Virus record (IMG/VR): IMGVR_UViG_2698536355_000010
Strand: one strand, 5' to 3'
DNA length: 39,062 bases
Source of the DNA: a virus
Taxonomy: Duplodnaviria; Heunggongvirae; Uroviricota; Caudoviricetes
The notes beneath the pieces were generated by a model. That model did no database searches, was not told the DNA's origin, and saw only the letters and a list, made by a program, of their open reading frames with translations. This document shows, piece by piece, positions 10,145 through 29,510 of this stretch; position 1 is the first letter of the stretch; every line of letters begins with the position of its first letter. Made by a program: the position numbers and the translations under genes.

Positions 10145-10711
10145 TCAGGGAGATTCATTGCTCTTATTTGCCGGAAATTTTCTATAAATGGTAGAAACGC
10201 CTACATCAAAAATCAGTGCAATACGCAGTCTTGATTCTCCGGCCTCGAGTAAACGTCCAATCTGTGCCCACTGTTCGGTGGTCAACTTAGGACGGCGTCC
10301 ACCTACTCTGCCTTTAGCACGAGCTGCAGCCAGCCCTGCCCTGGTACGTTCAACTATCAGTTCGCGTTCCATTTCAGCCAGGGCACCCATGACATGAAAA
10401 AAGAAACGGCCCATTGGGGTACTGGTATCAATACTGTCAGTCAGGCTTCTGAAATTCACACCACGCTGGCGCAACTCTTCTATCAGCGTAACAAGATGCC
10501 GCATACTGCGCCCCAACCTGTCCAGCTTCCAGACAACCAGCGTGTCTCCTGCCGATAGTGTCCTGAGCAGTTTTTTCAGCCCCGGTCTGTCGGACTTAGT
10601 GCCACTGATTTTATCCTCAAAAATCCGCTCACATCCCGCGCAGTTCAGTGCATTACGTTGCAAATCGGTGTTCTGGTCATTTGTTGACACGCGTACATAG
10701 CCAATAAGCAT
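10145..10711 (-). CDS. serine-recombinase DNA invertase (Gin/Hin/Pin/Cin family)
   Basis: N-terminus MLIGYVRVSTNDQNTDLQRNAL with catalytic Ser motif and C-terminal HTH; start set at third ATG (10711) which has GGGGGA 5 nt upstream. Confidence 0.9.
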   Translation of the reverse strand: MLIGYVRVSTNDQNTDLQRNALNCAGCERIFEDKISGTKSDRPGLKKLLRTLSAGDTLVVWKLDRLGRSMRHLVTLIEELRQRGVNFRSLTDSIDTSTPMGRFFFHVMGALAEMERELIVERTRAGLAAARAKGRVGGRRPKLTTEQWAQIGRLLEAGESRLRIALIFDVGVSTIYRKFPANKSNESP

Positions 10712-10738
10712 GATCATCCCCCTGAATAAAAACCGGAG

Positions 10739-11248
10739 ATGATGCCAGTTAGCCGTAATCTCTGCATTTTCTTAAACGTTGGTTTGGGAGAAACGATAAA
10801 TAAAGCCTCCGGAGCTATGCAGAAATCGGCCAATGGATCTGATATTTCTGATGTATCAGCCTTCCGAAATGCGCTCCAGTTAGGGACCGCCGCAACACGA
10901 GATGTTGGAGCAGATAATGCCTCGAAGTTACTGGATTTAGACAGCTTCAGGTCAATGATGTCAGGGAATGGCTACATCTACATTCCATGCATTGCGACGA
11001 CAGGAAACCCGGTGAAACTTATGTTGCAGTGGGGAACGGTGGCAACACAAAAGGGAGCTGATGCTGGATATGCCTTACCATTTGCTTTTCCCTATGCAGG
11101 CTTATTTGCGACCGGAAACCGTGGAACATCTGGCTACAATGCCGCGATGAATGTGCGTATTGCCAGCAGAACGCATATCAGTATTCAGAACTGGTCGCCA
11201 TCCGGAGAGGGCACCGAAGATTGTTGTTTTATCGCGCTGGGGTATTAA
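10739..11248 (+). CDS. alternative tail-fibre C-terminal segment (Sv'-like), expressed only after inversion
   Basis: ORF on opposite strand to H ending ...CCFIALGY (H ends ...HFEAIGY); shares A-x-x-RDVG block with H; likely lacks its own start and is read only when fused to the H constant region after inversion. Confidence 0.65.
   Translation: MMPVSRNLCIFLNVGLGETINKASGAMQKSANGSDISDVSAFRNALQLGTAATRDVGADNASKLLDLDSFRSMMSGNGYIYIPCIATTGNPVKLMLQWGTVATQKGADAGYALPFAFPYAGLFATGNRGTSGYNAAMNVRIASRTHISIQNWSPSGEGTEDCCFIALGY
10767..10792. repeat. candidate invertase crossover site (gix/hix-like), right
   Basis: ttttcttaaacg-tt-ggtttgggagaa fits TTnTCnAAAACC-nn-GGTTTTnGAnAA half-site pattern at 17 of 20 defined positions; 56 bp upstream of invertase start. 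Confidence 0.5.
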
Positions 11249-11250
11249 GA

Positions 11251-11661
11251 ATGAATAAATTTTATAAAGGCTCTTTCTATCCGAAAGCACTAAAAGGGGT
11301 ATATATCAGCGCCGGTTCATGGCCTGAAAATGGCGTTGATGTTGATGATGAAACAATGGCAATTTACACAGGCGTAGCGCCACAAGGCAAAACGCTGGGG
11401 GCTGATAAAAATGGTAATCCTGCGTGGATTGATATCCCGCCACTCTCCGCTGAACAACAGATTATTCAGGCTGAACAGAAAAGAACAGTATTGCGTTCTA
11501 TGGCTGATAAGGAAATAGTCTGGAGACAGGATGCTTTTGATGCGGAAATCGCGACGGCAGAAGAAACCGCCGCGTTATCTGAATGGAAAAAATACCGGGT
11601 CTTGCTGATGCGCGTTGATACAGCAAAACCCGTATGGCCTGTCAATCCGCAGGATATTTAA
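11251..11661 (+). CDS. tail fibre assembly protein (Tfa'/U'-like)
   Basis: Starts MNKFYKGSFYP; C-terminus EWKKYRVLLMRVDTAKPVWPVNP is the conserved Tfa C-terminal motif. Confidence 0.8.
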   Translation: MNKFYKGSFYPKALKGVYISAGSWPENGVDVDDETMAIYTGVAPQGKTLGADKNGNPAWIDIPPLSAEQQIIQAEQKRTVLRSMADKEIVWRQDAFDAEIATAEETAALSEWKKYRVLLMRVDTAKPVWPVNPQDI

Positions 11662-11875
11662 CGGGGGCGTTGTAGGTGGTGACATATTCAAGCAGTTCTG
11701 TTGGATATGTCACCGTTGCTGCATCTCGCTCTACGTTAAATGTATCCGCTCCCCAGATAACACACTCCCTCAAAAATGCCTCCACCTCTGGCGAGACTTC
11801 AACCGCATCATCAGGTCGCTCTTGTTCAGAAACATAAAAACCAACGGTCGTTGGGCTGAAATAGATATTCTCCAT
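11642..11875 (-). CDS. tail fibre assembly protein N-terminal fragment (apparently truncated)
   Basis: 77-aa ORF MENIYFSPTTVGFY... directly downstream of H with a Tfa-type N-terminus but no conserved C-terminal domain; overlaps convergent tfa' by 20 bp. Confidence 0.45.
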   Translation of the reverse strand: MENIYFSPTTVGFYVSEQERPDDAVEVSPEVEAFLRECVIWGADTFNVERDAATVTYPTELLEYVTTYNAPVKYPAD

Positions 11876-11877
11876 AT

Positions 11878-13362
11878 TTAGTATCCTATTGCTTCAAAAT
11901 GCAGTGTCGGTGTTTCGCCGAGATTGGGTGTCGTATACGCCACAGTGAATCGCGTTCTTGATACGTCAGCGCCAGAATCAGTATCGCGATGCGTTGACAG
12001 TGATTTTCCGGCCATTGTTGTCTGTTTCGAAAACTCTGAGCTCGCTAGTGTTGCCAGCGTTGCTATTTGTGCATTTGGGAATTGTCTGGGGAAATTAACC
12101 CTGTAGTAATGGGTGTAGTACGTCACCCCACCAAGCACCTGCGCGTTGAAGTTACCAACTGGTGTCAGTGTCACAGTGCCAGCCTGTCGAATCATACCAT
12201 TTGGGAGAATATCCCAGGCAGTTTGTCCGTTTCGCGACATACCAAATGCGGACATGTCCGGGAGTTGATTATTACCGGTTCCGACATCCCGTTTTGCCGC
12301 TTCTCCCAATTGAAGGTATGCGAGAAGACCAGCTACATCCTTTCCACTCAAATTAGTCAGCGTATTGTCCAGCGGTTGTTTACCTGCCAGCGCATTAAGC
12401 ATTGTCGTGGCAAAGTTCGGATCATTCCCCAGTGCCGCCGCCAGTTCGTTCAGTGTATCCAGTGCAGCAGGTGCAGAACCCACCATTGCCGCAATCGCCG
12501 ATTTCACAAAAGCCGTGGTGGCAATCTGTGTATTGTTGACCGACTGTGCCGCAGTAGGTGCTGTTGGCGTTCCGGTGAGTGCCGGACTCGACAACGGCGC
12601 TTTCAGTGCCAGCGCATTGTTAATGGTGGTACTGAAATTCGGATCATTGTTAATGGCTGCGGCTATTTCTTTTAGCGTGTCCAGCGTGGCTGGCGCACCA
12701 TTAATAAGGGCCGTCAGTGCCGCCTGAACAAACGCGGTGGTCGCAACCTGCGTGGTGTTATTCCCTGCCGCTGGCGTTGGCGCTTTGGGGGTTCCGGTAA
12801 ATGTCGGGCTGGCTTTTGGCGCATACTGTGAATGTGGGTCCTGTGCGGCAAGATGTTTTGCCATCAGGTCATCCACGTACACTTTCAGCTCCAGTACCTT
12901 GTCATCCACATACTTGCGGGTTGCCAGCACTACGGCAGGGTCGATTTTCAGGGTGATATTGTCCGTGCTGCTGGTAATCAGCACCATGCGCACGGTCTGG
13001 GTGCGCCCGCTGCCTTCAGCCAGTTGCGGCTTATAGCTTTCCGGGCAGTTGCCCACGGCAATCAATGCTCCGGACTCATCAAACAGGCCCACTTCACGTA
13101 TCCACCAACCGCCCTCGTTTTCAGGGATCACCTGTTCAGCAATAATCTGGCTGCTGTTCTGCGGGTCGATATAGAGCATATTCAGCGCAGCCCGGCGTTT
13201 CTCATTTACCAGTGCAGTCTGCTTTGCGTCCGGCGTTGGCAATGTCCCTCCGCCATCGCCGACCGCCATATGGGTAATTTTTAAAGGCACACCGAGCGCG
13301 GCGGCGCTGGCAAGTTTCGCCGCGCCAATATCCGTCAGCAGGGTATAAAATTTTGTGCTCAT
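11878..13362 (-). CDS. H: tail fibre protein H
   Basis: 494-aa ORF; N-terminal roughly 330 aa resemble P2 gpH (MAVGDGGG, AESYKP...AEGSGR, NELAAALGNDPNFATTM), C-terminal part divergent. Confidence 0.85.
   Translation of the reverse strand: MSTKFYTLLTDIGAAKLASAAALGVPLKITHMAVGDGGGTLPTPDAKQTALVNEKRRAALNMLYIDPQNSSQIIAEQVIPENEGGWWIREVGLFDESGALIAVGNCPESYKPQLAEGSGRTQTVRMVLITSSTDNITLKIDPAVVLATRKYVDDKVLELKVYVDDLMAKHLAAQDPHSQYAPKASPTFTGTPKAPTPAAGNNTTQVATTAFVQAALTALINGAPATLDTLKEIAAAINNDPNFSTTINNALALKAPLSSPALTGTPTAPTAAQSVNNTQIATTAFVKSAIAAMVGSAPAALDTLNELAAALGNDPNFATTMLNALAGKQPLDNTLTNLSGKDVAGLLAYLQLGEAAKRDVGTGNNQLPDMSAFGMSRNGQTAWDILPNGMIRQAGTVTLTPVGNFNAQVLGGVTYYTHYYRVNFPRQFPNAQIATLATLASSEFSKQTTMAGKSLSTHRDTDSGADVSRTRFTVAYTTPNLGETPTLHFEAIGY
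12311..12336. repeat. candidate invertase crossover site, left (inside H)
   Basis: Minus-strand ttctcgcatacc-tt-caattgggagaa matches the right site at 18 of 26 positions (9-bp block ttgggagaa identical), at the same position relative to the RDVG block. Confidence 0.35.
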
Positions 13363-14865: not shown

Positions 14866-15211
14866 TCTCTGCTCCTGTTGATACGGAAAGGGAAACAGGC
14901 ACACCGTTATTACGCCGCCCGGTCAGCTCCACCACCATTGAACCGTCAAAATTGCTGTTAATGGTGATGGAATCCAGCGTCAGCCGTGGCTCCCAGCGAC
15001 TCAGCGCCACATACACTGCCGACATGACCTGCAGGCGTAATGCCGGATTTTGTGGCTGGTCTATCAGTGCCGACAGCAGAGAACCATATTCCCGACGGGC
15101 AATACGGCTACCCTGCGGTGTCAGCAGAATGTCCCGCACCGACTGGCGCAGATGGTCAATATCAGTAATGACTTTACCGCTGGTATTGTTCATCCCGATA
15201 TAAAGCGTCAT
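14852..15211 (-). CDS. W: baseplate wedge protein W (gp25-like)
   Basis: 119-aa ORF MTLYIGMN...; P2 gpW-like. Confidence 0.8.
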   Translation of the reverse strand: MTLYIGMNNTSGKVITDIDHLRQSVRDILLTPQGSRIARREYGSLLSALIDQPQNPALRLQVMSAVYVALSRWEPRLTLDSITINSNFDGSMVVELTGRRNNGVPVSLSVSTGAENGSD

Positions 15212-15786
15212 ACCGGGCCTCCGGTTGTATCGCCGCCTTTCAGGACGCCAGTATGCTCATGGTCGTCAACCACGACTCCGTTGGAACTCATCGCGCCGCC
15301 GCCTTGGGTGACGCCACCATTGATCACCACCTCGCTGTTGATGCGCGTGGTGTCAGCCTCCACCACAAACTGACCGGTTTTGAGGGTGATATTGTCTGCC
15401 GCCTCGATCACCATGGATTTGATACCCCGGACGTACCATCGCCCGGTGGCGGGTTCGTACTCAAACCTGCCGCCGTCCGGGTACTCCGTCACGCAGCCGT
15501 CCACGGAATCCGACGGAGGCGCAAACTGACTGGAGTAGATGGCGGGCAGCACAAAAGCGGTTTCCAGATTGCCCCCCATGCTCAGCACCACCACCTGCTC
15601 ATCCGGCGACGGACACCACCATGTACGGGCACCACCGGCACGCAGCGTCAGCCAGTTAATCCAGTTGGTTTCGAGGTCGCCTGTTTTCACCCGGCAAAGC
15701 CAGTTTTCCCGATCCACTTCGGTCACGGTGCCGGTGCGGATCAGGTTGGTGATAAGGCGCATGATTTCGGTTAGTTGTGCGTTCAT
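15208..15786 (-). CDS. V: baseplate spike/assembly protein V
   Basis: P2 gpV-like; start placed at ATG 15786 (MNAQLTEIMRLITNLIRTG) by alignment to remembered P2 V N-terminus; ATG 15762 is an alternative. Confidence 0.8.
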   Translation of the reverse strand: MNAQLTEIMRLITNLIRTGTVTEVDRENWLCRVKTGDLETNWINWLTLRAGGARTWWCPSPDEQVVVLSMGGNLETAFVLPAIYSSQFAPPSDSVDGCVTEYPDGGRFEYEPATGRWYVRGIKSMVIEAADNITLKTGQFVVEADTTRINSEVVINGGVTQGGGAMSSNGVVVDDHEHTGVLKGGDTTGGPV

Positions 15787-15832
15787 ATGGAAATCATTGC
15801 CTATCGTAAACGACAGTGATATTAAAGAGGTT

Positions 15833-15850
15833 TGTGCAGTCACCCACACA
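15833..15850 (-). promoter_or_regulatory. candidate Ogr/B-dependent late promoter element (P_V)
   Basis: tgtgcagtcacccacaca, TGT-N12-ACA with the same extended pattern and orientation as the P_F and P_O dyads; centre only about 55 bp from V ATG. Confidence 0.4.
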
Positions 15851-15884
15851 AGATGATCATCAAATCTGTTTTGGAAGGATTCTT

Positions 15885-17405
15885 ATGAGTTGCTTAGATC
15901 AATTATCTTCAGAAAATAAAAAATCCCTATTATCATCAGTATTTTCAAAGAGCTATTTCCTCTGGATTGGCTCTGGATTTTCGTACAATTTCGGATATCC
16001 AAGTTGGGGGGCCGTACTTGAAGAAATAGCAAAGCGAATAGAGTACCCGTTAAAATTAGATTCATCACAGCCTCTGCGTGCTGCAGAATTACTTTTAAGT
16101 TATGCGATGAGTGAATCATCAATAAAAGAATATGATTTCAATTCGCTCGTTGCCAGGACGATTATAGATTTAAAAACAGAAACTAAAGAACCAAGATGGC
16201 TTAAAAGATTCAAACTCTTCGCTCCCAATACAATTGTAACAACTAACTGGGATGAGGTGCTTGAAGAAACATTTGAGCATATGGCAAATAAAATCATCAG
16301 AAAGGATCCATTCCCTAAAGTATCAACAAAAGGGAAAAATATCTTCAAAATTCATGGTGACGTCGGAAAACCTGATTCGATTGTTATAACACAAAGTCAA
16401 TACTTTTCTTTTCAGCGCGAAGACACTTATCTTAGCCGAAAAATTTACACATTGTTTTCAGAAATGTCCCCTATATTCATCGGTTACAGCTTAACCGACC
16501 CAAATATAGGTTTCCTTTATGAAGAAGCATTAGCACATCTGCATGGAAAAAACCCGCCAGCATTCATGGTAATTCACCCAGATGCAAACCCTTTAACTTT
16601 CGAGGAGACAAAGTATTTATTTAAATCAAAAAATATACACCTGATTAAAGCAACCATAGAAGACTTCCTTGCAGATTTATCTCAGGAATATAAATCCTTT
16701 AAAGAATCACCTCATCGTTTCAACCTTGAGCACGAACATGTTCTTCCCAAAATAAAAACTGTAATGGATACCGTTACGAAAGGAAAAAAAAATAAAAAAG
16801 CGGAACTAGAAGCCTTATGTCCTCAAAGAGCTGCAAGCTGGGCCGTGACAAAAGCCATAATTGACATTCTAAAGAAACCAATATTGTACATTCAATTCGG
16901 CGGAAAACTTCTTTCTCCAGACAATATTATCCCCTACAGAGAGTTCGATGCTTTAGTTAATGTAGTCATAACACTTAGCAACAATCACGGTTACCCTGAC
17001 GAGCTTATACGTCAAGATTTTCATGCTTCTGTTGTCAAAATGTGCATCGAAACAGAAGGGGTTTGGGACTTCAACTATGCTGAAGTACCTTTCTCTAACA
17101 TTTTAAGAATAAGCCCTAGCCCCGGCACTGAAAGTTTCGACAAAAAAATATCCCATATAATAGAAATTATGCGATGGTCGTCCCCATCTGAAATAGGGAA
17201 GTGCTGGGCAACATGGAATGTATTTAAAGAAAAACAAGATTGGATTAGCCACAGTGATATTGTTGGCATTCTTTCGAAACTTGAAACCGATGGTGACTTA
17301 GAATACCAACCCAGAGATAAAAAATGGCTAAACATCCTGAAAAAATGCCCTCACGCAACGGCTGCAGATATCAAGAGAATTGATACTCTGATAACCCCAG
17401 CTTAG
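15885..17405 (+). CDS. SIR2-like (DHS-like NAD-binding fold) protein with uncharacterised C-terminal domain
   Basis: Motifs FLWIGSGFS (GxGxS), IVTTNWDEVLEE (TTNYD-type), KIHGD, IFIGYSLTDPNI; ATG 15885 preceded by GGAAGGA; gene strongly AT-rich versus flanks. Confidence 0.8.
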   Translation: MSCLDQLSSENKKSLLSSVFSKSYFLWIGSGFSYNFGYPSWGAVLEEIAKRIEYPLKLDSSQPLRAAELLLSYAMSESSIKEYDFNSLVARTIIDLKTETKEPRWLKRFKLFAPNTIVTTNWDEVLEETFEHMANKIIRKDPFPKVSTKGKNIFKIHGDVGKPDSIVITQSQYFSFQREDTYLSRKIYTLFSEMSPIFIGYSLTDPNIGFLYEEALAHLHGKNPPAFMVIHPDANPLTFEETKYLFKSKNIHLIKATIEDFLADLSQEYKSFKESPHRFNLEHEHVLPKIKTVMDTVTKGKKNKKAELEALCPQRAASWAVTKAIIDILKKPILYIQFGGKLLSPDNIIPYREFDALVNVVITLSNNHGYPDELIRQDFHASVVKMCIETEGVWDFNYAEVPFSNILRISPSPGTESFDKKISHIIEIMRWSSPSEIGKCWATWNVFKEKQDWISHSDIVGILSKLETDGDLEYQPRDKKWLNILKKCPHATAADIKRIDTLITPA

Positions 17406-17408
17406 AAT

Positions 17409-17861
17409 TTAGTTATCTTTTGTCATCCACCTCAAGAGAGTGTTTAGAATTATCTGGTTACTCTCTTGGGTTTGTCCCAGCAATCTGCGAGCTGGGTATT
17501 TAATACTTTTGCTTCTTTTACCTATCCGCTCTCTCAATCCGTAGTGGTGAACACGGGCAATGCGCTGTACCTTGCCTTCAAACTGCACGCTGGCAGAGTC
17601 GGCGCTGGCGGAAGTTTTCAGGTATTTTGTGGTGCGCAGCTTTGCAAACATCTGACGTTTGATACGGCCTTTTTTACTGCGTGCTGTTACCCGTCGCGGT
17701 TCATAACTGCTGCCATCTGGATTGCGCTGCATTCTGATATTTTGCTGCTGTGTCCGGCGTAGTTCCTGCGCCAGCTGGCGCATCATGCGGCTTCTTGCGG
17801 CTGGCTCCAGATTCGCCAGCAAGGCACTCAGCCAGTCGTCCACTTTCTGCAGTTCAGCCAC
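17409..17861 (-). CDS. S: tail completion protein S
   Basis: 150-aa ORF in P2 gpS position; its stop lies 3 bp from the convergent SIR2-like stop. Confidence 0.8.
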   Translation of the reverse strand: MAELQKVDDWLSALLANLEPAARSRMMRQLAQELRRTQQQNIRMQRNPDGSSYEPRRVTARSKKGRIKRQMFAKLRTTKYLKTSASADSASVQFEGKVQRIARVHHYGLRERIGKRSKSIKYPARRLLGQTQESNQIILNTLLRWMTKDN

Positions 17862-18306
17862 GTTTCACCGTCCACATTTCTTCAGGTTCATCAGGTTCCG
17901 CTATAGCTTCAACGCTCGACACACTGCCGTCAGTGCTGACCAGCACACGCTCCGTCAGTTGCAGGTTGAGGCTGATATCACAGACATCGTTGCGCAGAAT
18001 ATCCACCTCAAAGGTGAATAGCTTTTCCCGTAACGCCGGGTTATTGATGGCATCGGGCTGGTTATCACGCAGCCACAGCAAAACCGGGGCCATCAGCAGA
18101 TTCTGGTCGCCGCTGAAATCCTCAATCACCACGTTCAGGGTGTAGCGGTACTCCCATGACATGGAGCTGGCCCCCGTGGCAACCAGCGAACCGTTATCCA
18201 CAAACAGATGCAGTTTGTCCGGGTTATTGCGGACATAAGGCACCGCTTTATTGAGGGCGTGGCGCAGGGATTGTGGTTTGTTCACTGTTTCGCTCCTGAC
18301 ACGCAA
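17854..18306 (-). CDS. R: tail completion protein R
   Basis: 150-aa ORF in P2 gpR position. Confidence 0.8.
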   Translation of the reverse strand: MRVRSETVNKPQSLRHALNKAVPYVRNNPDKLHLFVDNGSLVATGASSMSWEYRYTLNVVIEDFSGDQNLLMAPVLLWLRDNQPDAINNPALREKLFTFEVDILRNDVCDISLNLQLTERVLVSTDGSVSSVEAIAEPDEPEEMWTVKRG

Positions 18307-18538
18307 TAATCATGTCCACTTTGTCTGCACAGACCGCCCAGGCGGCCTCCGTTTCATCCAGCAACGCATTCAGATCACCGTTAGTGCGCGGTGCTGCCTG
18401 CTCCAGCCGACACGGCGTCACTCGCGGACAACCACTGACGGTAAGCTGCACCTCCGGTGAGTGCCGGACGTTCCCGCAGCCGGATAATGTCAGCAGGCAA
18501 AGGAGTATCAGCCCAGTGGCGTAAATCCTCGTTCTCAC
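18248..18538 (-). CDS. lysC: outer-membrane lipoprotein spanin (LysC/Rz1-like)
   Basis: Signal peptide plus lipobox LTLSGC; embedded out of frame in the 3' part of lysB. Confidence 0.7.
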   Translation of the reverse strand: MRTRIYATGLILLCLLTLSGCGNVRHSPEVQLTVSGCPRVTPCRLEQAAPRTNGDLNALLDETEAAWAVCADKVDMIIACQERNSEQTTIPAPRPQ

Positions 18539-26210: not shown

Positions 26211-26876
26211 TCAAAGCTCTGAGTCTACAGGCTCATGATAAAGGTTTACAGGGTAGTGTATAACCTCATAATTAAGTTGACTAACAGTGTGAGTATGTTG
26301 ACTGTAAAAAACCAATGGGTTTCTCTTACAAGGAGTTATCGAGATAGACTTACAAGCATGAATTCTTGGAGCCGATTTATCTAAATGAGCCTTCCACTTA
26401 GTCATCATTTCATTACATTTTTTATTACGCGTATATATAATTAACCCACCACTTGCACTGTCTACAGTACCAGTGCTATATCGCTCAGTGAGTTGTGCAT
26501 ACCCTTTAAATAAATAACCATATGAACCAGTGTGTTTTTTGGCCTCGCCATGCCAAGTAAATCTATTCAACTTTATTGTTATATCACAATGACCTCGTTG
26601 ATTATTTTCATGATATGCTTCAATTCCCATATCTTTATTTTTTATATTTGCCAGTAAAATTAAAGTAAGCTGATCTTCTGTTAAATCAAAATTCAATTTA
26701 TTTGAATTTTCCTCAATTGCCTGTACAGCAGAATCAAGCTCAATTCTTACAAACTGTTTGACGTTCTCATACGACTGGAGAGCAAACCTAACGCGAGTAA
26801 TAGAAGCATTGATACGCTGAAGAAAAATATCATTATCAATTTCAGCTAAACTCATTGGTGCAGACATTTTTAACAT
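26211..26876 (-). CDS. hypothetical protein, cargo operon gene 3 (possible PD-(D/E)xK-like motif)
   Basis: 221 aa; ATG overlaps upstream stop (ATGA); HCDITIK...(14)...GEAKK resembles a D...ExK motif; AT-rich. Confidence 0.6.
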   Translation of the reverse strand: MLKMSAPMSLAEIDNDIFLQRINASITRVRFALQSYENVKQFVRIELDSAVQAIEENSNKLNFDLTEDQLTLILLANIKNKDMGIEAYHENNQRGHCDITIKLNRFTWHGEAKKHTGSYGYLFKGYAQLTERYSTGTVDSASGGLIIYTRNKKCNEMMTKWKAHLDKSAPRIHACKSISITPCKRNPLVFYSQHTHTVSQLNYEVIHYPVNLYHEPVDSEL

Positions 26877-27310
26877 CAGACAATATCCTTTAATTTAGAT
26901 TCATCTAATGTAAAAAAAGGAAAGACGAAGGACTTATAGTCATACATAATCTCCCCTGTAAATGGGTTTACTAAAGATTGATTAATTTCAGCCTCTATAA
27001 CATCTTCTAACTCAAGCTCAATAGGATCATGAAAATCATCAATAAACCAATAATTGAGTTTTAAAAACTCAACCTTTGGACTACAAAGAATTTGTATAGC
27101 TGGGTACACAACCTGCTCATATGCTTCAGGTTGTATACATCCTTTATAACCATTAACGATACTAAATAAATCTTTATAACTCAGAGCTATATTAGGCGAT
27201 TTCTTTGCTCTCACACCAATTTCATCATACAAATAGCAAGCTAGCGCCCCTATATCAGGGCGCTCTGCACATATTTCTTTGATGATCTGGGGCATATCAC
27301 CATCCTTCAT
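26876..27310 (-). CDS. hypothetical acidic protein, cargo operon gene 2
   Basis: 144 aa from ATG 27310 with GGAG 6 nt upstream; tightly packed between genes 1 and 3. Confidence 0.55.
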   Translation of the reverse strand: MKDGDMPQIIKEICAERPDIGALACYLYDEIGVRAKKSPNIALSYKDLFSIVNGYKGCIQPEAYEQVVYPAIQILCSPKVEFLKLNYWFIDDFHDPIELELEDVIEAEINQSLVNPFTGEIMYDYKSFVFPFFTLDESKLKDIV

Positions 27311-27322
27311 TGCTGACTCCAA

Positions 27323-28429
27323 TTATAATATCAGCTTTGTGAGGGTTTCGAAATCATCTTTGGATATACATTTGCTTAATATAGCATAATTGACAGGAGA
27401 GCACCCACTACCACCTAAATGTCTGCGTAATGTTCCTGGAATGATAAGCTCTACACTATCCGCCAATTGCAATTTTGGATTATTCCTATCTACTCTAATT
27501 CCAATACGATATAAACCAATATTACCTACAGCTTTAATGCCCTCTTTATTAAACAGATCATCACGCAAGTCTTTCTTAGCCACATTTTTCTTTTCCTTAT
27601 GAGTGGTTCCCTCATAAGTTAAAAATGACAAATCGAACACCTTATAACTTAAACTTGAATATGGCATTACATTTTGCTTGAAAATTGGCTCAATTAATGG
27701 ATAAAAATCCTTTTCCGATGAATTAAATTGATAACCTGCGCAATTATATAACTCACGAATAAAATTCGTTTTCGCAAAAACGATATTATCACCAACAACA
27801 TTACCATTAGTATCAATTAATACATGGATTTTATTTGAAGCTGAATCTAATATACACACATCAAAACACTGACGTTTTTCTTTTCTCTTCGCAATGATTT
27901 CATCAAACTGTTTGTATGCTGCTAACTTTGACGGAGGGACTTTCTCTCTTACAACCAGCTCCCTGATAGATGAAAATACCAAAATAGACTGAGTATTTTG
28001 CTTAGAGTAATTAACAAGCTCAAGTTGATTTTTAATAGCATGCTGTAATTGAACATCATCAACAATCGTTTCGACTAATGATGTTGGTTGCTTCATCATA
28101 TTCCATTGGAGAGCATATCTATCATCAAGTAATTTAATTACTTGACTATCTACAGACAAACTAAATATTGCTTTTTCACCATAAACAACCTGCCCAAAGA
28201 CTAAATCATTTACACTTGCAATGATTTTGTCAAATTTTTGCCTATCTTTCTTTTTAAAATCAATGAGGCTTTCTAGTATTTTGTCGTTTGTTGCTTCACG
28301 CCCTCTACCTGTAGGTAGCCCTAAAGAAGCAATAATTGGTCTGGCGATATGCCACGTAAAACGTTCAGTTAAGGCTAAGATCGACTTTAACTCAAAGTCA
28401 GAAAGCACCACTGGGACACCACTTGTCAT
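27323..28429 (-). CDS. hypothetical protein, cargo operon gene 1
   Basis: 368 aa from ATG 28429 with AGGTG upstream; no nucleotide-binding or other motif recognised by eye; AT-rich. Confidence 0.6.
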   Translation of the reverse strand: MTSGVPVVLSDFELKSILALTERFTWHIARPIIASLGLPTGRGREATNDKILESLIDFKKKDRQKFDKIIASVNDLVFGQVVYGEKAIFSLSVDSQVIKLLDDRYALQWNMMKQPTSLVETIVDDVQLQHAIKNQLELVNYSKQNTQSILVFSSIRELVVREKVPPSKLAAYKQFDEIIAKRKEKRQCFDVCILDSASNKIHVLIDTNGNVVGDNIVFAKTNFIRELYNCAGYQFNSSEKDFYPLIEPIFKQNVMPYSSLSYKVFDLSFLTYEGTTHKEKKNVAKKDLRDDLFNKEGIKAVGNIGLYRIGIRVDRNNPKLQLADSVELIIPGTLRRHLGGSGCSPVNYAILSKCISKDDFETLTKLIL

Positions 28430-28589
28430 AACATGCACCTAGTCAACCCAAAAGCAATTGAAAATCGCTCTTGTCTTAATTTTTTCCATCAATATCTAAC
28501 AAATTACCTTAATGTTGAAAAAGTTTGCAAGCCATTTGCGTCTAAAAAGTGACTTGACTCAATGTGTTACAAAGCTTAGCGAGCGCGCG

Positions 28590-28608
28590 CTCGTATCCCC
28601 GCCACGCC
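28590..28608 (-). other. cos-like cohesive-end site
   Basis: Minus strand reads GGCGTGGCGGGGATACGAG followed by CGCGCGCT, closely resembling the remembered P2/186 cos (GGCG[A/T]GGCGGGGAAAGCA...GCGCGCT). Confidence 0.5.
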
Positions 28609-28647
28609 TGCCCGCTTTATGTAGTGGTTTTCATGCACCTGCATGAC

Positions 28648-28676
28648 ATAAGCAAAAGCCCGCCAGCTCTGGCGGG
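28648..28676 (-). terminator. rho-independent terminator downstream of HNH gene
   Basis: Stem gcccgccag/ctggcgggc (28657..28676) followed on minus strand by TTTTGCTT. Confidence 0.5.
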
Positions 28677-28790
28677 CATCAGCAAAAACGATCCTCAAAC
28701 GATCATGCGATTTCATGCGACATAGACATGCGTTGGCAAAAATGTACGAAATACTCAGCTTACAGGAAATGGTCTTTTTCCAACCTCCAG

Positions 28791-29510
28791 TTAGCCAAAG
28801 CAGAAACCAATATTGCAATTTGAAACTCCACAGTTGTGAAATTGATGTGGACCGACTCTTAGCTTGTGTTCGTCTCCTACAATCCGAGTCCCCTTAACCA
28901 ACATATCTAATCTTTCCACAATCAATCTTTCAGGCGCATCAACTTTAATAATTAAACGAGGACCTTTCCTTTTTTCTATAATAGTTATTCTAGGACCAAC
29001 AACCTGAACATCCCAATGCCTTGCACTACAAACCCACTCATTCTTAATTAATTCAAGATTAACAATACCTTGACTATCGTAAAATTTACCCGAAATAAGA
29101 AAAGCATTATTTTCTTTTTCAATGGTTAACAATGGCTCATTTTGAAACATTATTGGTACAGTACAGGATTCAAACGTCGCACCACCAAATATTATTGTTG
29201 GATGCCTATCAGAAAAGTCCAATATATCGGCCACATTCCCTTTTTGTAAGGCTGCAGGAGATTCCATTGCTTTAATTATTTTCTCTTTAGAGTAAAGACG
29301 TTTCGTTACTTTCGCATGGCACGTAGGACAAAGTAGTGCTATTGCATTTGGAGAGTGCTCCTTTGCATCAGCGTATGTGGGAATTACATGCTCATACTCA
29401 ACAATGGGAGAAGCACAAACAACGCAACCAAAGCCACAGCGCTGCCTTACCTCCAGTTTTACAGGTTCAGGAATTGTTCTAGATAACCCATGCTTGTTAA
29501 TAGTTGTCAT
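28791..29510 (-). CDS. HNH-endonuclease-domain protein
   Basis: N-terminal CGFGCVVC...EYEHVIP...N...LLCPTCH (HNH pattern); C-terminal 160 aa unassigned; AT-rich; AAGGTAAGG before ATG. Confidence 0.7.
   Translation of the reverse strand: MTTINKHGLSRTIPEPVKLEVRQRCGFGCVVCASPIVEYEHVIPTYADAKEHSPNAIALLCPTCHAKVTKRLYSKEKIIKAMESPAALQKGNVADILDFSDRHPTIIFGGATFESCTVPIMFQNEPLLTIEKENNAFLISGKFYDSQGIVNLELIKNEWVCSARHWDVQVVGPRITIIEKRKGPRLIIKVDAPERLIVERLDMLVKGTRIVGDEHKLRVGPHQFHNCGVSNCNIGFCFG

Follow-up and report, generated by a model that had tools for sequence, protein, structure and literature searches.

The tight, terminator-less junction between gene S and a SIR2-family cargo gene in a P2-like prophage as probable normal architecture of the orf30 hotspot

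The orf30 locus of P2-like phages is a horizontally acquired variable region, as are Z/fun and tin-old (PMC3091744). The order of elements in P2 is S, a putative O-operon terminator, orf30 on the opposite strand, an activator site and V. Recent hotspot surveys have focused on other P2 sites and mention defence genes within tail genes (PMC9122126, PMC13586616, bioRxiv 10.1101/2024.10.15.618418). We describe here the corresponding site of IMG/VR virus record IMGVR_UViG_2698536355_000010, a stretch of 39,062 nucleotides (the window, meaning the whole of the DNA analysed) that is a prophage of the P2/186-like (Peduoviridae) group; its late genes are encoded on the minus strand. A plus-strand gene for a SIR2-like protein lies between S and V in the window, and its stop codon faces that of S across 3 bp. 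An earlier note on this DNA had drawn attention to the junction, and proposed that late transcription through S would run antisense across the SIR2 gene and could silence it when the prophage is induced.

Two described prophage systems are the closest parallels to such an arrangement. In the ‘noncontiguous operons’ of Staphylococcus aureus 80alpha, antisense transcription helps to shut off the prophage defence Tha on induction; the spanning transcript and the reciprocal regulation were demonstrated by direct RNA-seq and mutants (PMC11087260). As in a noncontiguous operon, the window has an opposite-strand gene nested between co-directional genes of one functional cluster, and the further likeness would lie in mutually exclusive lysogenic and lytic transcription and in a link to autoimmunity of prophage defence. 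The nested antisense gene of 80alpha is, however, the inhibitor (ith), located in the lysogeny module, whereas in the window it is the candidate defence gene itself. In the Pseudomonas phage JBD26, the minus-strand defence moron tab has its own promoter, lies in the late structural region and is expressed by the prophage; self-targeting is avoided by a co-located late-strand gene for the late-expressed anti-Tab protein (PMC10884400). For few prophage defence genes is it clear how self-harm on induction is avoided; the worked examples are Tha/Ith, Tab/anti-Tab and BstA/aba.

Our analysis indicates that the tight, terminator-less junction is probably part of the normal design of a known cargo hotspot and forms no special switch. 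The full explanation, to which we give a probability of roughly 0.6, is that the cassette is an ordinary compact, reverse-oriented cargo (‘moron’) at the orf30 hotspot, with the junction as its S-proximal edge. The cargo would be transcribed in the lysogen from a sigma-70 promoter standing back-to-back with the silent V promoter and overlapping it, and this transcription would run towards S and probably end at a hairpin in the S tail. A late terminator would be missing because the ancestral empty site had none. Antisense transcription into silent or untranslated DNA would be harmless in both directions, and a compact layout would be favoured by capsid size. In the lytic cycle, late polymerases that have passed S would most likely run on, in antisense, into the 3' part of the cargo and then probably be stopped by Rho, with any late shut-off of the cargo as a by-product or a minor contribution. 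The junction is thus mainly of value as a record of normal hotspot architecture; the observations that we would retain are the orientation rule of the hotspot, the exchange of the S tail and V promoter within the cassette, and the overlap of the V promoter with the candidate cargo promoter. The genes and boundaries concerned are the following.

15208–15786, minus strand: gene V, baseplate spike and first gene of the next late operon (PF04717 and PF18946; the RefSeq start agrees)
15787–17525, no strand: the whole low-GC exchangeable cassette of the P2 ‘orf30’ (S–V) hotspot (GC content 0.37–0.38 as against 0.56–0.60 in the flanks)
15885–17405, plus strand: the cargo gene, encoding a 506-residue SIR2_2-family protein and candidate NADase-type anti-phage effector (PF13289, PADLOC, PDB and AF2/Foldseek)
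17406–17408, no strand: the spacer between the two stop codons (AAT, 3 bp)
17409–17525, minus strand: the allele-specific low-GC tail of S, its last ~38 codons (GC 0.38 as against 0.56 in the rest of S)
17409–17861, minus strand: gene S, tail completion/virion morphogenesis, last gene in the late O-type operon (PF05069, E=1.9e-40; phrog_26)

Both genes at the junction are real and full length. The local gene order is lysB, lysC, R (17854–18306), S, the plus-strand SIR2 gene, V, W and J. The PF05069 match spans residues 3–146 of the 150 in S, which RefSeq annotates as ‘phage virion morphogenesis protein’; the V protein combines PF04717 with the Apex motif (PF18946), and the cargo is a SIR2 family protein in RefSeq. 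For the cargo, RefSeq places the start at ATG 15885 (506 residues), as against GTG 15816 in the mechanical list of open reading frames (ORFs). Most full-length homologues (96–100% query coverage) have 501–514 residues, and the stop position is therefore native. The SIR2 ORF ends with TAG at 17403–17405 on the plus strand and the S ORF with TAA at 17409–17411 (TTA in the plus-strand reading), in agreement with the 3-bp separation on opposite strands given by the earlier note. The same note saw no hairpin between the genes. This holds literally, since 3 bp are too short for one, but overlooks a strong plus-strand hairpin inside S that starts 26 nt past the SIR2 stop. A bidirectional intrinsic terminator, with a GC-rich hairpin between the stops and both an A tract and a T tract, is absent from the S/SIR2 junction.

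To place this junction among its relatives, the hotspot was surveyed in 80 IMG/VR loci and 37 GTDB loci encoding S relatives, plus reference phages, giving 119 loci with both S and V. Empty spacers of 55–76 bp (68 bp in the clade of the window) occur at 48 of the 119. The cassettes at the remaining loci are all of low GC; they fall into 24 types and encode 28 families of cargo protein. Twenty-two of these types are convergent with S and two are co-directional (binomial p=3.6e-5). The distance from the S stop to the cargo stop runs from -83 to +86 bp across cassette types, with 10 of the 22 convergent types at 18 bp or less or overlapping, so that a 3-bp gap is ordinary for the site. SIR2 homologues of 76% and 66% identity occupy this S–V site, identically oriented, in Enterobacter prophages, where the gaps measure 11 and -8 bp; one in Huaxiibacter is placed likewise, with a gap of 11 bp. 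The SIR2 family has therefore long been resident there, always packed against S.

Three parts make up the cassette of the window: the last ~38 codons of S, the SIR2 cargo, and a copy of the activator-dependent V promoter that belongs to the cassette itself. It shows presence/absence polymorphism as well as a shift in base composition: the flanks are present in 973 of 5426 complete E. coli genomes and the SIR2 cargo of the window in seven of these. P2 orf30 resembles it in its place between S and V homologues, its low GC, and its cargo convergent with S and divergent from V. The two differ in that P2 has 71 bp between the stops and an annotated ‘putative rho-independent terminator for O operon’ (dG -26), an element that the 3-bp gap of the window lacks, and in that P2 orf30 encodes a 261-residue protein with hydrophobic stretches, unrelated to the SIR2 protein.

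Cargo of very different kinds, membrane proteins and nucleases among them, is found at the S–V site, with matches to the defence candidates PDC-S15, PDC-S59, a NucC-like nuclease, AbiU/AIPR and PDC-S66. A 2229-bp two-gene cassette (loci L027, L028, L048 and L051) encodes a P-loop ATPase and a second protein, by eye PARIS-like (AriA/AriB).

The empty sites give the simplest account of the missing terminator. In the 68-bp class the V promoter box begins four bases past the S stop and there is no terminator; phage 186 likewise has an empty site with a 69-bp spacer and no terminator between S and V, as does 500465-1. Because the ancestral empty sites lack a terminator and none has since been added, read-through from S is plausible, and RNA polymerase transcribing the late genes very probably runs on, in antisense, into the SIR2 gene at its 3' end. 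That part of the earlier proposal stands; the transcript may, as set out below, end within a few hundred bases, and need not cross the whole gene. Our literature search found no transcriptome of a P2-like phage that covers the S–V site.

The rival reading closest to the earlier note is that the missing terminator was itself selected: transcription from the O-type late operon would read antisense over the SIR2 gene and silence it, by polymerase collision or double-stranded RNA, so that the prophage is unharmed on induction, as a ‘noncontiguous operon’ type of switch. We regard this as unlikely. The backward orientation in 22 of the 24 cassette types, the persistence of tight or overlapping junctions in SIR2 alleles down to 66% identity and the lack of a canonical late-strand terminator in the window all agree with it, and 80alpha provides a precedent in which antisense architecture tunes a prophage defence between lysogeny and lysis (PMC11087260). 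In 80alpha itself, however, antisense made only a small contribution and most of the effect came from a protein inhibitor (PMC11087260), and the backward defence gene of JBD26 is neutralised by a protein (PMC10884400). At least three convergent types (P2 orf30, 880/881 and 1894) do possess an intergenic hairpin terminator; clear examples were seen in these 3 of the 16 convergent types checked. Read-through is therefore no required feature of the site. Cargo of such diversity is also unlikely to share a single need for self-silencing, and SIR2 protein made in the lysogen would already be present when the late genes fire and would last through the lytic cycle.

The backward orientation is explained equally well by insulation, in which the cargo neither reads into the tail operon in the lysogen nor is over-expressed as part of the late operon. 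Both co-directional cassette types have a terminator or a terminator-like structure of their own. In the 1725-bp type (L019, L022 and L056) a canonical terminator, AAAAACGCCCTTTAATAGGGCGTTTTT, separates the cargo from the V promoter box; in the 989-bp type (L074) a terminator-like hairpin stands immediately ahead of the V start. These structures suggest a need to insulate the tail operon from constitutive transcription of the cargo.

Three further elements of the window bear on where transcription from either side might end.

17162–17304, minus strand: a C-rich, G-poor stretch of untranslated late-sense RNA (C/G up to 2.6 in 78-nt windows)
17340–17362, minus strand: a weak terminator-like hairpin, GCCGTTGCGTGAGGGC, followed by T6 (dG -4.1 for the hairpin at 17347–17362)
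17431–17470, plus strand: a strong hairpin inside S codons ~131–144, followed by TTTGT (dG -20.4 kcal/mol)

The earlier note saw no terminator between the two genes, and for the late strand this is borne out: no canonical intrinsic terminator is found on the minus strand between the S stop and the V start. A consensus terminator scan of 15000–18500 returned none on the minus strand and chance-level numbers overall. A more tolerant late-strand search, extending from inside S to V, gave nothing better than the weak hairpin with T6, which lies 47–69 nt after the S stop and is missed by the consensus scan. An Rfam scan of 15000–18500 gave no match at E<=1, and thus no known small RNA or antisense RNA family at the junction.

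The most conspicuous secondary structure near the junction is on the cargo strand. The 40-nt hairpin at 17431–17470 contains a perfect 9-bp inverted repeat (17433–41 / 17460–68; z=-4.45 for the surrounding 121 nt) and lies entirely within the coding sequence of S. Its position past the SIR2 stop, followed by TTTGT on the plus strand, places it to act on the SIR2 transcript. On the minus-strand side it is followed by GTGGATGAC, with no U tract. This hairpin could thus terminate the SIR2 transcript or stabilise its 3' end, but is no candidate for either role on the late transcript. Several other tight-junction cassettes, but not all, also have a strong cargo-strand hairpin inside the S tail. A shared, conserved cargo-strand terminator was considered and rejected: the hairpin is not kept from one SIR2 allele to another, and an equivalent is present in only some of the other tight-junction cassettes.

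Several of these observations weigh against the explanation that we favour. The U tract of the hairpin is weak (TTTGT), it reads TCTGT in a near-identical copy of the cassette (L005), and the allele of 66% identity (L088) has no comparable hairpin. The 22:2 orientation bias suggests selection, for which a ‘harmless by-product’ alone is insufficient and insulation is one candidate only. The cassette types, moreover, may not be independent events, because they are exchanged together with their flanks.

A second rival reading holds that the late transcript ends near S, with essentially no antisense transcription of the cargo, through Rho acting at 17162–17304, through the weak hairpin and T6 at 17340–17362, or through H-NS on the AT-rich cassette. 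We consider this unlikely as well. Late RNA is untranslated for 1.6 kb past the S stop. The late operons of P2 show Rho-dependent polarity, which Psu of P4 suppresses. With untranslated late RNA after S and this classical polarity, Rho is therefore expected to act, and the excess of C over G at 17162–17304 makes that stretch a possible Rho loading region, although a rut site cannot be proved from sequence alone. The weak hairpin and T6 shortly past the S stop, and the 37% GC of the cassette, point the same way. Polymerase would nevertheless proceed at least ~100–250 nt into the 3' end of the cargo before release, so some antisense overlap would stay, and the hairpin is very weak and is not called by the consensus scan. 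On the explanation that we prefer, Rho may end the late transcript within a few hundred bases, and this prospect, with the C-rich stretch, also counts against selected antisense silencing.

Late-strand coding capacity within the cassette was considered as well. An 86-residue late-sense frame (17075–17335, minus strand), which stays open in four diverged alleles, was examined as a possible late-expressed anti-defence gene and rejected as a probable artefact: its peptide mirrors the conserved ‘GKCWATW’ region of the SIR2 protein and its start is unconserved. No credible or conserved late-strand gene was found in the cassette of the window, and no inhibitor gene is evident. In this the cassette differs from JBD26.

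The V-proximal end of the cassette contains two further elements.

15797–15825, plus strand: a candidate sigma-70 promoter for the cargo, consisting of TTGCCT, a 17-nt spacer ending in TGA, and TATTAA (from conservation across alleles)
15833–15850, minus strand: an Ogr/B/Delta-type activator box, TGT-N12-ACA, of the late V promoter, centred 55.5 nt from the V ATG

The spacer on the V side is allele-specific and unrelated between cassette types, apart from the TGT-N12-ACA box. The box stands at -63 to -66 from the V start codon in 21 of the 23 spacer classes listed, and at exactly -64 (to -47) in 17. Such a nearly fixed box argues that V has its own Ogr/B-type late promoter in every cassette; a transcript spanning the cargo is therefore not needed, unlike in 80alpha. 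The geometry also implies a leaderless V, transcribed from the start codon or a position beside it. P2 is annotated in this way, with the activator site at 10239–10266 and transcription starting at 10308, which is the V start codon. P2 and the window thus share a box ~55 nt ahead of the point where V transcription begins, itself the V start codon.

Four diverged SIR2 alleles (66–76% identical proteins) keep, within a V–cargo spacer of 99–102 bp, the promoter motifs, the activator box and a GGAAGG ribosome-binding site. The motifs read TTGCC(T/A), a 17-nt spacer that is variable save for its last 3 nt (TGn, giving the TG motif of an extended -10), and TATT(A/T)A; in the window they occupy 15797–15802 and 15817–15825, with an expected start near 15832. 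The pattern is of the extended -10 sigma-70 kind and a generic promoter scan did not call it; from its conservation we take 15797–15825 to be a candidate extended -10 sigma-70 promoter for the cargo. A generic promoter within the conserved 5' end of V, able to serve whatever cargo is present, was also considered, but neither scan nor inspection gave a convincing match.

The candidate cargo promoter overlaps the -10-like AATGAT of the V promoter (15793–15798, minus strand) and falls wholly within the polymerase footprint expected there. If the assignment is right, polymerases at the two promoters exclude each other, and activator-bound polymerase at V would lower late transcription of the cargo without any antisense RNA. 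This would be a more direct route to late shut-off than antisense silencing, and if shut-off occurs at all, occlusion of the cargo promoter by activator-bound V polymerase is at least as likely a route.

A broader form of the switch idea is that the backward orientation was selected as a general self-immunity device, V-promoter occlusion and antisense collision together shutting any cargo late without an inhibitor. This seems to us quite unlikely. On this reading the cargo promoter would be free in the lysogen, and shut-off would begin once the late activator appears. Were the S–V layout to switch cargo off late, it would be a generic solution needing no inhibitor; the cassette types of the hotspot, more than 20 of them and in E. 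coli phages that are easy to induce, offer a natural series for the question of self-immunity.

The cargo is, by domain, motifs and fold, a candidate member of the defence-associated SIR2 (PF13289) family. The PF13289 match scores 92.4 bits (E=3.5e-26) against a gathering cut-off of 24.5, and residues N121, D123 and H157, corresponding to the catalytic Asn/Asp and His, are invariant across 30 homologues. PADLOC matches are to PDC-S25, the best but partial (E=7.6e-29; only residues 124–325 against positions 128–327 of a 517-position profile), and to ThsA, in its SIR2 part only. Sequence matches in the PDB are KomC, ThsA and DSR2; these and the ThsA profile match are limited to the SIR2 part, residues ~17–267. 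An AlphaFold (AF2) model with a pLDDT of 88.5 shows an N-terminal SIR2 domain followed by an all-helical C-terminal half, and the top Foldseek matches of this model are DSR2, ThsA and KomC. Pfam has no family for the helical half, and sequence searches of Pfam, PADLOC and the PDB gave no match past the SIR2 region. No NCBIfam model covers the cargo.

The likeness to ThsA (of Thoeris), DSR2 and KomC thus consists of the SIR2_2 domain, the invariant Asn/Asp and His, and the best sequence and fold matches. No ThsB, HerA or KomAB partner is seen between S and V, where S and V are the only neighbours; as a single gene, the cargo is therefore not Thoeris, SIR2-HerA or Kom. Thoeris was rejected on three counts: a ThsA match confined to the SIR2 part, an all-helical C-terminal half rather than SLOG/STALD, and the lack of an adjacent TIR-domain ThsB. 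The cargo is also half the size of DSR2. DSR2, its closest fold, is activated by a phage tail protein according to PDB entry titles, so that self-triggering by late proteins is conceivable; this counts in favour of a selected antisense switch. Adaptive silencing of the SIR2 cargo by late antisense transcription is nonetheless unproven and faces the serious objections set out above.

The family, of ~505 residues, is widespread in Gammaproteobacteria, and its placing at the S–V site adds one more single-gene SIR2 family as a candidate defence gene. INPHARED has no record with the cargo at the nucleotide level, and among isolated phages the sole match at the protein level is a distant mycobacteriophage. 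Our literature search found no paper testing this SIR2 family.

A homologue of 50% identity in Serratia sp. IR-2025 (L090) is not at the S–V site. It adjoins an HNH_2 protein, and an Ogr_Delta gene lies ~2 kb downstream beside a gene for an aspartate:alanine exchanger (Asp-Al_Ex), the same kind of gene (ybjL) as flanks the ogr end of the window prophage. This locus is possibly another hotspot of P2/P4 type.

The S tail is the other variable component of the cassette. Up to residue ~112 the window, phage 500465-1 (no cargo) and Cartapus (a different cargo, of 176 residues) agree in their S sequence, Cartapus differing from the other two by single substitutions only; beyond that point the three S proteins diverge completely. 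In all cargo cassettes but one (window, L002, L003, L008–L128), the last 20–38 residues are allele-specific and encoded by low-GC sequence, and the rest of S is nearly identical. The exception is the 1420-bp type, which keeps the tail of the empty site. Within the SIR2 cassette family the tail has, by eye, diverged far more than the cargo (66–76% identity), whereas among empty-site phages S tails are conserved in step with the rest of S. The variable tail could reflect hitch-hiking beside a recombination boundary or something functional.

A functional coupling of tail and cargo would have the cargo sense, or spare, a particular S tail, allowing self/non-self discrimination among P2-like phages, with the tight junction preserving the linkage. 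We judge it very improbable. Its attraction is that every cassette type but one brings its own tail, that tails differ far more than cargo in the SIR2 family, and that DSR2, to which the cargo is structurally closest, binds a tail protein of a phage. The cargo types are, however, unrelated (PARIS-like, AbiU-like, nuclease, membrane) and so cannot all read the S tail, and the 1420-bp cassette does without a tail of its own. Hitch-hiking of a weakly constrained tail of 20–38 residues by the recombination boundary is the simpler account.

A GC-rich hairpin (core ACGGACC-TCC-GGTCC, dG about -10 to -19) is present at S codons ~115–129 in L010, L032, L062, L069, L012 and L049. It sits in conserved S, at the commonest edge of the variable region, and could be a coincidence of coding sequence or a landmark for recombination or transcription.

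Two other regions of the window vary. A Gin/Cin-type serine recombinase gene (Resolvase and HTH_7 domains; 10145–10717) adjoins plus-strand tail-fibre-like fragments at 10739–12240; together, 10145–12240 looks like an invertible host-range segment, and the prophage of CP138217 differs from the window at 10793–12240. A cos-proximal hotspot at 26211–29510 (minus strand), downstream of the portal gene, holds four ORFs of 221, 148, 371 and 239 residues, convergent with the portal gene. These have no Pfam or PADLOC match except for an HNH motif in the last one, and the region differs from that in the otherwise similar prophage of E. coli 20Y000092.

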